Assembly: GCA_018015315.1 (NCBI GenBank)
Contig: GCA_018015315.1_3629.1
Direction: 5' to 3' (one strand)
Source: a phage
DNA length: 64,000 nt
Shown one piece after another: positions 53,310 to 62,066 of the stretch (position 1 is the stretch's first letter; every line of letters starts with the position of its first letter). The position numbers and the translations under genes were made by a program. Under the pieces are notes generated by a model, which ran no database searches, had not been told where the DNA came from, and was given only the letters and a program-made list of their open reading frames with translations.

Positions 53310-54857
53310 TTAGATAAAACGCTTGAACATAGAAGGTGATGAGATTGATGGAATCACACAAGGAAGTGCTACCTCCTCTTTCTCCAGGAAATTAATTGCA
53401 GAAGCTACACAGTCAGCCCAGTCGTCTTTTCTGTTAAATGTTGATCTTTCCCCGTTGAATTTTTCAAGTTCGGTCAGAAATGCTTCCAGAGTATCAGGAT
53501 GGAAACTGGATTTTACAATCCTCACCATCCCTTGTTGGGCAAGATTGGCAAAAGGTGAGAACCTTGTCAGTTTAGACTTGTTGGAAGGCATTGGGTCTTC
53601 TTCAACCCTGAACCCTTCTGCGAGCAAGGATCTGGATGAGGTTAAGAACTCACTCTTACCTGCCTGACCAGGGTCCACAGAGAATACGATTATACAATCA
53701 TCACCATCAAACTGCGCCTGTTTCCTGATGATCACATCTCGTTCACCAGCCTTTTTACAGAACTTGCCTTCCAGACCTGTGGAATACCTCCCGTCATCCA
53801 CGTTTTCAGGACAATAATCCCCTGACAGGTAATAAAATCCGTCGCTATCTTTACTTACCTTAACACTGGCGGTAAAGTCAGGAAATTTATTACCGGAAGT
53901 TCTCTCGGTTCCTGCCTTATCCCATGCCCTGCAAGATACTGATCCAAGGGGTACTCTATCGGCATCACGAAGGAAAGATCTTTGAAAATAGTTTGCACCC
54001 TCAGGCTTTGCAAACCAGTTACCATGGAGAAGCTGAGCTTTTTCCAGCTCTGGTAGACCTTCGAGGAAAGCAAGGTATTCTGGGTTGTCTCTCAAACAGA
54101 CAGGATTATCGAATATTGTTGCGCCTATGAACGAGAATGACAACGGTCTTGGCTTGATCTCCACACCCAGTCCGTTAACCGTGGTGTATTTCTCTATCAA
54201 CTCTTCCTTAGAGTCTCCCCAAATAAATTCACCGTCGCGTCGGATAAAATATCTTTTCTTACCACATTTCTCCGGATCTGGATACCCTTCATCGTCCAAC
54301 CACCATCTAACCAGTTTGGCAAGCATGTGTTCTGAATCAGGGTTACAGCTGATAACCATCCTTGATGGATACTTTGACTGAGATCGCAGACGAGACATCA
54401 GGTAGTCTATCTGCTCCCATTCGAACTGCGTGCCCTCATCGAAGCAAACCATGGTGTACTCAAGCCCCTGATGGTTAAGCTTATCTTGTACATACTCCAT
54501 GTGGCAGTATTTTACAACAGCTCCCTTTTTGCTTCTATCCCACTTGCCAGTGCTCGGATCAAACCGTGGAAAAATGAACTTATGATCCTTCTCTCTAAAC
54601 TTTGGCTTAATGTTTTCAGGCAGATCACTATAAATAGCTACTGCTTTAGGCCATAGTCCACCCTCACCTTCCAACTGCGGGGTTGTTCTTCGGAACATAA
54701 CCACAGAGCTGTGGGGGTCATCAATAATTTTAAGCGGCATCAACTGCAAGAGGAACGACTTGCCAGACCCTGCGGCACCGCCGATTACCAAAATATCTGC
54801 ATCGTTTTCGAGGATCATCTTCTGCTTTTCAGAACACGGTCCGTAAATCTTAGACAT
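53310..54857 (-). CDS. terL: terminase large subunit
   Basis: Walker A (VIGGAAGSGKS) near the N-terminus, Walker B-like hhhhDE (MVCFDEG), acidic C-terminal nuclease-like domain; 515 aa. Confidence 0.85.
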   Translation of the reverse strand: MSKIYGPCSEKQKMILENDADILVIGGAAGSGKSFLLQLMPLKIIDDPHSSVVMFRRTTPQLEGEGGLWPKAVAIYSDLPENIKPKFREKDHKFIFPRFDPSTGKWDRSKKGAVVKYCHMEYVQDKLNHQGLEYTMVCFDEGTQFEWEQIDYLMSRLRSQSKYPSRMVISCNPDSEHMLAKLVRWWLDDEGYPDPEKCGKKRYFIRRDGEFIWGDSKEELIEKYTTVNGLGVEIKPRPLSFSFIGATIFDNPVCLRDNPEYLAFLEGLPELEKAQLLHGNWFAKPEGANYFQRSFLRDADRVPLGSVSCRAWDKAGTERTSGNKFPDFTASVKVSKDSDGFYYLSGDYCPENVDDGRYSTGLEGKFCKKAGERDVIIRKQAQFDGDDCIIVFSVDPGQAGKSEFLTSSRSLLAEGFRVEEDPMPSNKSKLTRFSPFANLAQQGMVRIVKSSFHPDTLEAFLTELEKFNGERSTFNRKDDWADCVASAINFLEKEEVALPCVIPSISSPSMFKRFI

Positions 54858-55960: not shown

Positions 55961-56037
55961 TGGTCTCCACGGAGTGATTCGAACACTCGACCTCCTGATC
56001 CCAAATCAGGCGCTCTACCAAGCTGAGCTACGCGGAG
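55961..56037 (-). tRNA. tRNA-Pro (anticodon UGG)
   Basis: Hand-folded cloverleaf: acceptor CTCCGCG/CGTGGAG, D-stem GCTC/GAGC, anticodon stem CCTGA/TCAGG, loop TTTGGGA, T-arm GAGTG-TTCGAAT-CACTC, CCA encoded. Confidence 0.75.
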
Positions 56038-56048
56038 TATTTACTATT

Positions 56049-56123
56049 TGGTGGCCCTGGGTGGAATTGAACCACCGTCTGGCGATTATGAGTCGCTTGC
56101 TTGAACCTTCCAGCTACAGGGCC
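56049..56123 (-). tRNA. tRNA-Met (anticodon CAU; could be Ile-lysidine type)
   Basis: Acceptor GGCCCTG/CAGGGCC, anticodon loop CTCATAA, T-arm GGTGG-TTCAATT-CCACC, CCA encoded; D-stem only 3 bp. Confidence 0.65.
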
Positions 56124-56124
56124 T

Positions 56125-56200
56125 TGGTGCTGATGGCAGGACTTGAACCTGCAACATATTGATTACAAATCAATTGCACTACCAATTGTGCTACATCAGC
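56125..56200 (-). tRNA. tRNA-Thr (anticodon UGU)
   Basis: Perfect cloverleaf: acceptor GCTGATG/CATCAGC, D-stem GCAC/GTGC, anticodon stem ATTGA/TCAAT, loop TTTGTAA, T-arm GCAGG-TTCAAGT-CCTGC, CCA. Confidence 0.8.
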
Positions 56201-56205
56201 AAAAA

Positions 56206-56304
56206 GGTGCTAGGTGATGGAATCGAACCATCTATGTATTCAACGACTACCTCGTCTATTTTCAGGATTAAAAATCCTCGCCCTTGCCAAAGGGCTTACC
56301 TAGC
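56206..56304 (-). tRNA. atypical tRNA-like gene (possible anticodon UUU, ~30-nt extra region)
   Basis: Perfect acceptor (GCTAGGT/ACCTAGC), D-arm (GCCC-TTTGGCAA-GGGC) and T-arm (GATGG-TTCGATT-CCATC), but 4-bp anticodon stem and an unusually long region before the T-arm. Confidence 0.4.
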
Positions 56305-56402
56305 TCAGTATGTTGACCATGTTGCTAGTCGGCGATGACGACTGTAACATTTGATAATCCGGTTCTGCTTCCGGCTTTCGCTTAATTACAAGGTCAACAA
56401 TG

Positions 56403-56493
56403 TGGCAGAGGATAATGGAATCGAACCATCATCGAGTCATCCTCAACGGGACGGTTTTCAAGACCGCTTGAGCACCATTGCTCCCTACCCTCT
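56403..56493 (-). tRNA. tRNA-Ser (anticodon UGA), long variable arm
   Basis: Anticodon arm GCGGT-CTTGAAA-ACCGT, variable-arm hairpin, T-arm GATGG-TTCGATT-CCATT, acceptor AGAGGGT/ATCCTCT with one G-U pair, CCA encoded; D-arm spacing unusual. Confidence 0.6.
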
Positions 56494-56610
56494 TTTATTA
56501 TAAACAATACTGATAATGACACTGATTTTCGAGCAGTTAGTGACTAGTATAAACGACGATAAATACCAATGCCATTATCTGTATGATTTATGCATCTAAA
56601 AATATAAATT

Positions 56611-56697
56611 TGGTGGGGAGTGGTGGAGTCGAACCACCCGAGTCGCAATGACAATAGATTTACAGTCTACACCGCTACCTCTACGGGATAACTCCCC
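56611..56697 (-). tRNA. tRNA-Tyr (anticodon GUA), long variable arm
   Basis: Acceptor GGGGAGT/ACTCCCC, anticodon arm GTAGA-CTGTAAA-TCTAT, T-arm GGTGG-TTCGACT-CCACC, CCA encoded. Confidence 0.7.
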
Positions 56698-56701
56698 AAT
56701 T

Positions 56702-56776
56702 TGGCACCCCGTACTGGACTCGAACCAGTGTCAACGGCTTAGAAGGCCGCTGCTTTATCCACTAAGCTAACAGGGC
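56702..56776 (-). tRNA. tRNA-Arg (anticodon UCU)
   Basis: D-stem GCTT/AAGC, anticodon arm GCGGC-CTTCTAA-GCCGT, T-arm ACTGG-TTCGAGT-CCAGT, CCA encoded. Confidence 0.75.
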
Positions 56777-56872
56777 ACTGGGTGGCTTTCTTTTACACCT
56801 TAGCCGCCAGAAAAGGTGGGAGACCATGTTTACAATATTACACTGTTAAGCAAAGTTTGTCAAGAAAATATT

Positions 56873-59710: not shown

Positions 59711-60265
59711 TTACTCCCCGCTGTCAATAGCAAGACTCATTGCAATAAGGTATGCCTCTTCTAATGGTAAGAGTCTCCCCCACACATCCCAACCGACATC
59801 AAACTGCCTGCCAAACAACTGCTGTGTGGTTCCGTGAGCATGACCGAACAGTTGGACTGATCCGTGAGGCTTTCTGTTCCACTTTGCAAACTGGTAATGG
59901 CTCATACAGATCAAATTCTTGTTGTGGCGAAGCTCGTAATAATCTACAACCTCATGACCGAACTCTTTCATAATTCTGACAGTCGTCCTTGTGTCATGGT
60001 TACCACGAACAAGAATAATATGTCCGTTCAACATATTTAGAACATCTGGGAGCAATTTGTTGATATTCTTATCATTAGTGCACGCAATATCTCCCAAGTG
60101 AAACACAGTGTCTGCAGGCGACACAACAGAGTTCCACTCGGCGATGATTCCCGCATTCATACTGTCAAGATTGTGATCATACTGAGATCTGTGTTTTTGA
60201 CATGAATCAAACTCCATGACCCGCTGGTGGAGAAAGTGTGTGTCGCTTGTTACAAAGTATTTCAT
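59711..60265 (-). CDS. calcineurin-like metallophosphoesterase
   Basis: Start at the internal ATG (MKYFVTSDTHF); motifs D-x-H (SDTH), GD (HLGDIA), GNHD (RGNHDT), GHxH (GHAHG). Confidence 0.7.
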   Translation of the reverse strand: MKYFVTSDTHFLHQRVMEFDSCQKHRSQYDHNLDSMNAGIIAEWNSVVSPADTVFHLGDIACTNDKNINKLLPDVLNMLNGHIILVRGNHDTRTTVRIMKEFGHEVVDYYELRHNKNLICMSHYQFAKWNRKPHGSVQLFGHAHGTTQQLFGRQFDVGWDVWGRLLPLEEAYLIAMSLAIDSGE

Positions 60266-60272
60266 ACATTCC

Positions 60273-60683
60273 TCATTTAAGTTTAATGCAGTTTTTAAGC
60301 TGGCGTTCCATACGATCCACAACCTTGTCTGGAACATCATGAATGCTTTTATTACCGTGGCGGTTTTCAACCACGATCACGGTATAACTATACCCATGAC
60401 TGATTGCCATGTCAACATATTCCTGCACATGTTTTTCTTTTGTAAACGTATTACTTACCACGATACGGTCGTATCCCATACGCATCATATCTTCTACGTT
60501 ATCTTTGCACCATTTTGCTGCGAGTGTTACTTTACTTGCATCCCAGTTGTAATTGCCGTCATCGTCATACCAGAACATATCGTTCTCAAAATGTGGATAC
60601 AGACCTTCTAAAGATAGCGCATTTGCCAGTGTTGATTTGCCAGACCCTGGCAGACCACGCACGATATATAGCATTTTAGACAT
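60273..60683 (-). CDS. P-loop polynucleotide kinase-like protein
   Basis: Start at ATG (MSKMLYIV) with GGAGG RBS; Walker A GLPGSGKST at residues 10-18; ~136 aa, the size of a standalone 5'-kinase domain. Confidence 0.65.
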   Translation of the reverse strand: MSKMLYIVRGLPGSGKSTLANALSLEGLYPHFENDMFWYDDDGNYNWDASKVTLAAKWCKDNVEDMMRMGYDRIVVSNTFTKEKHVQEYVDMAISHGYSYTVIVVENRHGNKSIHDVPDKVVDRMERQLKNCIKLK

Positions 60684-60711
60684 AGCAATCCTCCGTTTTA
60701 ATTTTAATGAT

Positions 60712-60740
60712 AGTATACCTAACTGTTTTGTTAATTTCAA
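60712..60740 (-). promoter_or_regulatory. sigma70-like promoter for the kinase/phosphoesterase pair
   Basis: Minus strand: TTGAAA (60735-60740), 17-bp spacer, TATACT (60712-60717). Confidence 0.55.
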
Positions 60741-60783
60741 GTGTTGACACTAGGTTATTTGTGTGGCAGGATAGACTGACAAA

Positions 60784-61719
60784 ATGACAAATGAGGAACG
60801 TATGATGAAGTATTTTAATGCAGATGACCTAGTAGACAAAGGTCTTGTAACCAGTCGGTATTATCCAGATCTTGGATTAAAGATCTATAAATATGCCAGA
60901 AAAGTATTCTACAACAATCTGTGGCATTTGTCTCCGCGTTTACTGGAGTGCCGAGGTATTGTTGTTGGCAATGAGGGGAATGTTGTGGCATGGCCTTTCA
61001 CAAAAGTATTCAACTTAGGAGAAAACTCCACCAACCTACCGGACAGTAAACTTGTTACTGCGGTAGAGAAAAAGAACGGATTCCTCGGTGTGGTATCATC
61101 TCATAAAGGTGAACTATTGTTCTCAACAACCGGGTCTCTTGATTCTCCATATTGTAACCTTGCAAAGGAAACCATCCAAGAGCAATGTGGTAATTTAGAT
61201 CTTATCAAGAAGGTTATGGGCAATGAAAACATGACATTCATGTTTGAAATTTGTCACCCTTCAGATCCGCATATTGTTCAAGAAGACCATGGCGCATATT
61301 TGATAGGTTGCAGATATAATGATTCTGGAATAATGCTACCAGAAGCAGCTTTAGATGGGATTGCCAAATACCTTGGTGCAAAACGTCCTCACACTGTGCG
61401 TGAAATCCCGTTCAGCTATGCAAAAGAATTAGCTGCAGAAACAAGGGGCGAAGGGTATATGATCCGTAAGCCTTACTACCCTTATGACCTGCAGCTGAAG
61501 ATCAAGTCTCCATACTATTTGGCACGGAAGGCCGTAATGAGAGGTAAAGCATGGAAGATTTGGGATGACGATATTTTTAAACGTGTTGACGAGGAGTTTT
61601 ACGGTATGGTAAAATTTATTCGTAGCAACTATACAGAAGATGTGTGGAATTGCTTATTAGAGCAGGAGCGTCGCGAGATACTGGACTGCTATTTCCACAA
61701 CGAGGACTACATGAAATGA
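60784..61719 (+). CDS. RNA ligase (Rnl-like nucleotidyltransferase)
   Basis: 311 aa; candidate motif I lysine in VEKKNGFLG (KxxG); divergent from the kinase/phosphoesterase operon. Confidence 0.6.
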   Translation: MTNEERMMKYFNADDLVDKGLVTSRYYPDLGLKIYKYARKVFYNNLWHLSPRLLECRGIVVGNEGNVVAWPFTKVFNLGENSTNLPDSKLVTAVEKKNGFLGVVSSHKGELLFSTTGSLDSPYCNLAKETIQEQCGNLDLIKKVMGNENMTFMFEICHPSDPHIVQEDHGAYLIGCRYNDSGIMLPEAALDGIAKYLGAKRPHTVREIPFSYAKELAAETRGEGYMIRKPYYPYDLQLKIKSPYYLARKAVMRGKAWKIWDDDIFKRVDEEFYGMVKFIRSNYTEDVWNCLLEQERREILDCYFHNEDYMK

Positions 61720-62066
61720 AGAAGTGGATTGTGTGGCTTGATGATTTTAGAGATCCGTCAGATTATGGACTCCCAGACGCTCTGTGGCTAAAGAATTCTT
61801 CTGAATTTATGGATTTTCTTAATGATAAGAGAAAGCTCTACAGACGCGTATCTGAATGGTATTTTGACAATGATCTAGGTGAAGTTCTTGAAGGGTACGA
61901 CTGCTTCTCTGCGCTAGAGGAGAAACTTGTATTCGGAAAGCCACCACTTATTGACAACGTGATTATTTTCGTGCATACTTCTAATCCATCGGCAGCTCGT
62001 AAATTTATGCTTGCTGCTGACTCATTCAAGAAGTTTGGAATAGAGATCAAACAAAACATCTACTGA
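61716..62066 (+). CDS. hypothetical protein coupled to the RNA ligase
   Basis: ATG overlaps the ligase stop (ATGA); 117 aa. Confidence 0.5.
   Translation: MKKWIVWLDDFRDPSDYGLPDALWLKNSSEFMDFLNDKRKLYRRVSEWYFDNDLGEVLEGYDCFSALEEKLVFGKPPLIDNVIIFVHTSNPSAARKFMLAADSFKKFGIEIKQNIY

Follow-up and report, generated by a model that had tools for sequence, protein, structure and literature searches.

The tRNA operon of an rV5-like phage: codon supply, a probable Ile2-type tRNA and a conserved tRNA-like RNA

The tRNA cluster of the Escherichia coli phage rV5 was published in 2013 as a set of six tRNAs (Kropinski et al., PMC3606486), in a paper that already proposed codon supplementation for Arg and Pro and termed the Met tRNA "seemingly unwarranted". 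The rV5 record (DQ832317) annotates Arg, Tyr, Ser, Thr, Met and Pro together with a sigma-70 promoter, P(tRNA), and leaves a 99-nucleotide element between Ser and Thr blank. We analysed the corresponding locus in a 64,000-nucleotide stretch of phage DNA (GenBank assembly GCA_018015315.1, contig GCA_018015315.1_3629.1; hereafter the window), in which an earlier note made from the letters alone had described a cluster of seven tRNA genes at 55961–56776. We consider it likely that this region is one tRNA operon of an rV5-like phage, comprising six codon-supplementing tRNAs and a non-decoding tRNA-like RNA, and that the RNA-repair module nearby is independent of it.

The T4 tRNA cluster offers a second comparison. 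It is likewise a polycistronic phage operon, with five of the six anticodons in common (Arg-UCU, Ile-CAU, Thr-UGU, Ser-UGA and Pro-UGG) and with tRNA-Pro and tRNA-Thr at 82% and 74% identity to those of the window. It differs in having no Tyr and in carrying Gln, Leu and Gly, and CCA, which each of the six canonical tRNAs of the window encodes, is not encoded in several T4 tRNAs. The T4 operon also co-transcribes the small stable RNAs rnaC and rnaD (species 1 and 2), which are of unknown function and have a tRNA-like T-arm. T4 encodes Rnl1 and polynucleotide kinase as well.

The cluster and its operon layout

The phage of the window is a Vequintavirus: over a 1-kb region it shares 99.9% identity with Escherichia phage MiataMamis and 98.4% with rV5, and at least 80% of the cluster region is covered in 114 deposited phage genomes, which excludes a chance feature. 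The region is the known tRNA gene cluster of rV5-like E. coli phages, and the cluster itself is nothing new; the family of its tRNA-like RNA may be the sole part with any novelty. The locus has the rV5 order, Arg-Tyr-Ser-(gap)-Thr-"Met"-Pro, with the same P(tRNA) and the same neighbouring genes at 98.4% identity. What differs is the reading, since the rV5 record and paper have six tRNAs only, with the 99-nucleotide element unannotated and the CAU tRNA given as Met, whereas we assign the latter to the Ile2 type and the former to a tRNA-like family. Eighteen GenBank records of the MG0656xx series, titled "Campylobacter phage", match this E. coli phage locus at about 98% identity; probably either their host labels are wrong or the lysates were contaminated. 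The elements of the operon, in minus-strand order, are:

56835–56863, minus strand: predicted sigma-70 type promoter, TTGACA-17 nucleotides-TAATAT (consensus scan, 10 of 12 matches)
56702–56776, minus strand: tRNA-Arg(UCU), reading AGA/AGG (ARAGORN; Rfam tRNA model, 67.8 bits)
56611–56697, minus strand: tRNA-Tyr(GUA), type II with a long variable arm (ARAGORN; Rfam tRNA model, 29.9 bits; A73 and CCA encoded)
56494–56610, minus strand: Tyr-Ser spacer of 117 nucleotides, a long imperfect hairpin of about 30 base pairs (minimum free energy (MFE) -25.9 kcal/mol, z -3.5)
56403–56493, minus strand: tRNA-Ser(UGA), type II (ARAGORN; regular cloverleaf, G73 and CCA encoded)
56305–56402, minus strand: spacer of 98 nucleotides between Ser and the tRNA-like RNA, a three-way junction (MFE -25.8 kcal/mol, z -2.6)
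56206–56304, minus strand: atypical tRNA-like gene of 99 nucleotides (ARAGORN without assignment, "(atcc)"; Rfam tRNA model, 37.5 bits)
56125–56200, minus strand: tRNA-Thr(UGU), reading ACA (ARAGORN; Rfam, 78 bits)
56049–56123, minus strand: tRNA with a CAU anticodon, Ile2 type by sequence (ARAGORN; Rfam, 60 bits)
55961–56037, minus strand: tRNA-Pro(UGG) (ARAGORN; Rfam tRNA model, 66.4 bits)

Far from rejecting most of the folds or assigning other anticodons, the search software upheld the seven co-oriented genes of the earlier note. ARAGORN called exactly seven, all on the minus strand between 55961 and 56776 and with identical boundaries and anticodons, and six of the seven, the atypical gene included, passed the gathering score of the Rfam tRNA covariance model (29 bits). 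The remaining one, tRNA-Ser(UGA), matched only the tRNA-Sec model, at 39.4 bits and under that model's cut-off of 47 bits; its acceptor stem carries compensatory differences relative to rV5. Read directly, all six canonical genes end in an encoded N73-CCA and have seven-nucleotide anticodon loops with U33 and a purine at position 37. In some metagenomic Vequintavirus clusters (contig L050, 1984–2109; also L058 and L055) a 126-nucleotide insertion lies between tRNA-Arg and tRNA-Tyr, and the tRNA-Tyr of these clusters has diverged, with its stems changed in a compensatory manner, and is missed by ARAGORN.

The promoter is invariant in six related clusters and is the one annotated as P(tRNA) in the rV5 record. 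Host RNA polymerase would start at this site (56863–56835) and read through from Arg to Pro, and the single RNAs would be released by host RNase P and 3′-end processing enzymes. No credible terminator was found between the tRNA cluster and the downstream open reading frame (ORF) 68, spanin and terminase genes. A terminator-like match at 56295–56280 proved to be merely the D-arm of the tRNA-like RNA with its U-rich loop.

Small ORFs, which have sigma-70 promoters in rV5, lie upstream of the cluster, and ORF68, two spanin genes, the large terminase subunit gene and head genes follow downstream. The motif TGGTAAAATA, proposed as a late promoter by the rV5 authors, occurs 19 times in the window against 5.3 copies expected; 16 of the 19 copies are on the minus strand, and these span 9577–54517, all of them downstream of the tRNA cluster. 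Judged from these motifs, the cluster would head the late genes at the early/late boundary and be driven by a host-type promoter, not by a late one. The earlier note had placed the cluster in the late region, which holds for its orientation, as the spanin, terminase, portal and head genes that follow it lie on the same strand, but not for its regulation, given its own sigma-70 promoter and the position of all minus-strand TGGTAAAATA copies. The large terminase gene of the window (53310–54857, minus strand) is uninterrupted and encodes 515 amino acids; that of rV5 (L001, 11041–13886) is annotated as three joined pieces around an HNH homing endonuclease gene.

The CAU tRNA and codon supply

The CAU gene had been called Met in the earlier note, an identity that did not withstand comparison with E. 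coli tRNAs. Its closest E. coli counterpart is an annotated tRNA-Ile (81.6% identity over the full length). E. coli tRNA-Ile(CAU) has the same acceptor stem, GGCCCT/AGGGCC, and the same complete anticodon stem-loop, AGCGACTCATAATCGCCAG, whereas metT and metU differ from the phage tRNA throughout the alignment; the counterpart CAU tRNA in the T4 cluster is annotated Ile. By sequence, the gene very probably encodes an Ile2-type tRNA (lysidine, reading AUA) and not an elongator Met, and host TilS would convert its product to lysidine-bearing tRNA-Ile2. Codon use, compared between 50 mechanically chosen ORFs of the window and 40 annotated K-12 genes, lends indirect support: ATA is 4.6-fold enriched in the phage and ATG 0.9-fold, which fits AUA reading by the CAU tRNA. 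The "tRNA-Met" label, widespread in Vequintavirus genomes, is very probably wrong, and it conceals ATA, the codon for which compensation is matched best.

AGA (16.6-fold), AGG (10.5-fold) and ACA (4.6-fold) join ATA as the most enriched phage codons, and these top four are the ones read by Arg-UCU, Thr-UGU and Ile2. Enrichment is mild for TCA (1.9-fold), TAC (1.6-fold) and CCA (1.4-fold). Five of the six anticodons read A-ending codons, and G+C is 44% in the window and 53% in the host stretch. The codon supplementation put forward in the earlier note is thus borne out by AGA, AGG, ACA and ATA, in agreement with the rV5 paper, whose codon figures are concordant with ours (PMC3606486). Compensation is well supported, strongly for three tRNAs (Arg, Thr and Ile2) and more weakly for Tyr, Pro and Ser. 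The six tRNAs would supplement the host pool above all for AGA/AGG, AUA and ACA, and less so for UCA, UAC and CCA, and the cluster fits the standard picture in which lytic phages carry tRNAs for host-rare codons.

Two considerations temper this account. Tyr, Pro and Ser are less well explained, their codons being just 1.4–1.9-fold up, and the host table covers 40 K-12 genes only, set against a phage table of mechanically chosen ORFs. The poor fit of these three tRNAs favours a different view, somewhat unlikely in our judgement, in which the tRNAs are kept mainly as spares against host tRNA-cleaving nucleases (PrrC/RloC, PARIS AriB, retron-associated PtuAB or colicin-type) and not for codon supply. 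Against it, the CAU tRNA has the same anticodon stem-loop as host tRNA-Ile(CAU) and would not evade a nuclease specific for the loop, three of the six tRNAs correspond exactly to the three strongest codon enrichments, and no nuclease target is known for the present tRNA set. Codon supply is the function we favour for the six canonical tRNAs.

A conserved tRNA-like RNA

In other records the seventh element goes under tRNA-Lys, tRNA-OTHER, tRNA-TERM or tRNA-???(atcc), or is left out, and we found no description of it in the searchable literature; the assorted public labels hide one conserved structured RNA family. Its members, aligned as 16 distinct orthologues with further metagenome sequences, come from five Vequintavirinae genera (Vequintavirus, Avunavirus, Seunavirus, Mydovirus and Henunavirus) and always lie within a tRNA cluster. 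The RNA has five arms (acceptor, D, a short "anticodon-like" arm, extra and T), a shape that is the MFE fold in 16 of 16 orthologues; for the window copy the MFE cloverleaf has a z of -4.0. Across the 16 orthologues, 99.4% of alignment cells in the acceptor, D, "anticodon-like" and T stems are paired, against 34–45% with slid partners, which speaks strongly against neutral decay. Compensatory double changes affect 10 of the 22 stem pairs, and covariation supports these four stems. It extends to the tertiary pair 19:56, which is G:C in nine sequences and U:A in seven: the D-loop UUUGGCAA goes with the T-loop UUCGAUU, and the D-loop UUUGUCAA with UUAGAUU. The extra arm varies in length and sequence and always forms a hairpin, and the unpaired strands that flank it, GAAAA and AAUACAUAG, are invariant.

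The part of the molecule that would decode does not follow this pattern. The "anticodon" arm has 15–16 nucleotides, against 17 in a tRNA, and the orthologues have no common decoding arm with a 5-bp stem, a seven-nucleotide loop, U33 and a conserved anticodon. Its loop is UUUUUAA in Vequintavirus, UUUAUAA in Avunavirus, a six-nucleotide C[A/C/U]NCCA in Seunavirus and Mydovirus, and [C/U]AUCAAA with A33 in the Henunavirus-like members. The 3′ end is A-CC-UUUUU in the window copy and C/U-ACA in Avunavirus, and U-CCA is encoded in Seunavirus, Mydovirus and Henunavirus. With an anticodon loop that is not conserved across orthologues, the atypical gene does not stand as the seventh decoder implied by the earlier note; to judge from the alignment, selection probably acts on the tRNA-like upper half and a specific junction, not on an anticodon, and the RNA probably does not decode.

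The family is sharply delimited. Its covariance model gives members 90–121 bits and ordinary tRNAs at most 26 bits, with one copy per genome. The motif AATACATAGNNGGTTNGATTCC was found in 12 IMG/VR contigs, all of 120–148 kb, which fits Vequintavirinae sizes, and in 19 metagenome contigs, all but one of which are family members; among 185,579 species genomes it had one chance match, without tRNA-like context. Most matches to a looser, two-part pattern were due to chance. Essentially, the core motif is restricted to phage contigs of Vequintavirinae size.

We give an even chance to the proposal that this is a subfamily-wide, non-decoding family, freed from the operon and acting by tRNA mimicry. 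Speculatively, its upper half and invariant junction would allow the RNA to engage a tRNA-binding factor, be it as mimic, decoy or cofactor; it might sequester a host enzyme or defence nuclease directed at tRNAs, acting as decoy or sponge, or might assist a phage protein as its cofactor. Two points weigh against our account of this gene. Deletions in the natural isolates V18 (L006, 1451–1547) and JES2013 (L007, 1309–1530) have removed Tyr and Ser along with the 5′ portion of the tRNA-like gene, Pro being absent from V18 as well, so that Tyr, Ser and the tRNA-like gene are dispensable in culture, at least on laboratory hosts. In addition, a seven-nucleotide version of the Vequintavirus loop can be drawn, with U33, UUU and A37, and with A73 in the same molecule, and several GenBank records say tRNA-Lys.

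That last point underlies a rival that we consider quite unlikely, namely a functional tRNA-Lys(UUU) in Vequintavirus whose variable region is oversized, which LysRS would charge by way of U35 and A73 and which would possibly itself resist Lys-specific anticodon nucleases. The Rfam tRNA model aligns the loop UUUUUAA so as to give U33, the anticodon UUU and A37, with A as discriminator, and the Lys codon AAG is 2.3-fold enriched in the phage; AAA, at 1.1-fold, is not. The 15-nucleotide arm can form either a 4-bp stem with a seven-nucleotide loop or a 5–6-bp stem with a loop of 3–5 nucleotides, and its MFE structure ends in a triloop. In orthologues one finds UAU, UCA with A33 or a loop of six nucleotides in an otherwise invariant molecule, the CCA is not encoded, the discriminator varies between genera, and ARAGORN makes no assignment. 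Much less probable still, to the point of being barely credible, is a functionless, decaying tRNA pseudogene. The loss in V18 and JES2013, the non-canonical anticodon loop and the missing CCA in Vequintavirus would suit such a relic, which is contradicted by retention in five genera, by the ten compensatory stem pairs together with 19:56, by the invariant junction strands, and by a single copy per genome at the family-model scores given above. We therefore keep to a non-decoding, tRNA-like RNA as the reading of the seventh gene.

Narrower identities were also set aside. In the four-base anticodon (AUCC) fold drawn by ARAGORN, which would make the gene a frameshift suppressor with an eight-nucleotide loop, the stem AUUUU/AAAAU is paired in 44.9% of cells, no better than slid controls. 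A tRNA-Sec identity was rejected on stems of 7/5 and not 8/5, on the loop UUUUUAA and on a best Rfam match to the general tRNA model. A glycine tRNA is suggested in Seunavirus and Mydovirus only, by NCC in the six-nucleotide loops, G1:C72, C2:G71 and U73-CCA; this identity does not hold in Vequintavirus, Avunavirus and Henunavirus, and A1:U72 occurs in one metagenomic member. Nor is a small ORF behind the conservation: the lengths of 100, 108, 109 and 110 nucleotides are not multiples of three apart, and the pattern is one of stem covariation. The complement of the invariant junction strand, TATGTATT, sought as an antisense seed, occurs nowhere else in the window. A permissive Rfam scan of the atypical gene and both spacers returned tRNA-clan matches only, and its sub-threshold YrlA, mascRNA and Plastid-ycf2 noise fell on true tRNAs.

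Among described RNAs, T4 rnaC and rnaD have only their genomic situation in common with the tRNA-like RNA. Homology was rejected, as identity is 0.48–0.53, equal to background, and the family covariance model finds neither. If the present RNA is a non-decoding mimic, phage tRNA operons would have, besides these two, a further stable RNA of unknown function. YrlA (RF02553) and other tRNA mimics are similarly non-coding and keep a tRNA-like elbow and arms, so that mimicry is possible. The YrlA model, however, scores 16–25 bits against a gathering score of 69, with its weak matches on the neighbouring true tRNAs, and the 5′ and 3′ ends of the tRNA-like RNA belong to an open acceptor stem, like those of a genuine tRNA; the stretches examined showed no Rsr/Ro gene. 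Non-canonical type II tRNAs, that is tRNA-Sec and the allo-tRNAs (the latter reportedly treated by Mukai et al. in 2017), share a long extra arm and unusual anticodons, and one orthologue is annotated as a suppressor, tRNA-TERM. The tRNA-like RNA differs from them in its acceptor and T stems of 7 and 5 bp (not 8/5, 8/4 or 9/3), in the 6–10 invariant unpaired nucleotides on each side of its extra arm, and in its anticodon arm of 15–16 nucleotides, with a six-nucleotide loop lacking U33 in most genera. The RNA is readily testable, as natural deletion variants exist and its hosts are easily cultured E. coli phages, and tRNA-directed defence and counter-defence are under active study.

In Seunavirus and Avunavirus, about 190 nucleotides after the tRNA-like RNA are conserved between genera (L030, 1317–1510; L031, 1318–1510; L003, 1606–1799; L004, 1601–1800). 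This stretch starts like the 5′ half of a tRNA (GTGCATTAGCTCAG) and ends like a T-arm and acceptor; it could represent a tRNA interrupted by a large insertion, or else another aberrant tRNA-like RNA.

Both spacers of the operon are structured. None of 200 shuffles of the Tyr-Ser spacer folds as well as the native sequence, and in a relative 91% identical (L010) one C:G to U:A double change keeps the pairing; the hairpin might serve as a processing site of the RNase III type or be a small RNA. In the 98-nucleotide spacer, the outer stem GUUGACC/GGUCAAC is swapped for other complementary sequences in two relatives (L062 and L010), in both of which the interior, including the hairpin AGUCG-UCAUCGC-CGACU, is invariant. 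It matched no Rfam family and may be another structured RNA of the operon.

RNA-repair genes upstream

The earlier note had pointed to RNA-repair genes near the cluster and had suggested that the phage both supplements and protects the tRNA pool. Such genes are present 3–5 kb upstream, at 59711–62066:

59711–60265, minus strand: calcineurin-type metallophosphoesterase, candidate 2′,3′-phosphate healing enzyme (PF12850, PF00149; PHROG 547)
60273–60683, minus strand: P-loop kinase (AAA_33), candidate polynucleotide 5′-kinase (Pfam PF13671, 1.7e-10; PHROG 2071)
60784–61719, plus strand: Rnl1-family RNA ligase (PF09511, 55.6 bits against a cut-off of 28.3; PHROG 562, 8.9e-66)
61716–62066, plus strand: cREC_REC domain protein, a cyclic-phosphate processing receiver domain (PF20274, 9.1e-14, 52.3 bits against a cut-off of 27)

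The kinase has the P-loop GSGKST and a weaker match to the polynucleotide kinase family phrog_505 (7.6e-10), the metallophosphoesterase has all metal-binding motifs (DxH, GD, GNHD and GHAH) and matches PDB 1xm7 at 1.6e-10, and the ligase has the lysine motif EKKNG. Sequence searches of PDB returned no homologue for the kinase or the ligase. The cREC_REC ORF, hypothetical in most deposited genomes, extends the module to four genes.

It is plausible that the four genes form a healing-and-sealing module with a logic like that of T4 Pnk/Rnl1, and an independent module of this kind could mend nuclease-cut tRNAs by the same analogy. That it protects the tRNA pool can be reasonably inferred, and only inferred. 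Rnl1-family ligases, often beside a phosphoesterase, occur in many unrelated phages, including phages without this tRNA cluster, which makes nearness to the tRNA operon weak evidence of a functional link; co-distribution of the ligase with the tRNA-like RNA was likewise rejected, as the ligase is found in many unrelated phage groups with no specific link.

The same module bears on the view of the tRNAs as spares against host nucleases, in which it would be a second layer of one counter-defence. T4 Pnk/Rnl1 repairs tRNA-Lys cut by PrrC, and the tRNA-Lys and tRNA-Tyr of T5 rescue infection from PARIS and from a retron; both precedents, like the presence of four repair genes so close by, count in favour of that view. 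The wide occurrence of the ligase module, which is not tied to the tRNA cluster, counts against it, and we retain a codon-supplying operon with an independent repair module.

The module resembles T4 Pnk and Rnl1, which act against PrrC, in combining an Rnl1-family ligase, a P-loop kinase and a phosphoesterase. It departs from T4 in that kinase and phosphatase are separate proteins and in its extra cREC gene. The phosphatase is of the calcineurin type and resembles bacterial Pnkp, as opposed to the DxD phosphatase of T4, and the ligase scores 38 bits with TIGR02308, the T4 RnlA equivalog model, below its cut-off of 242.

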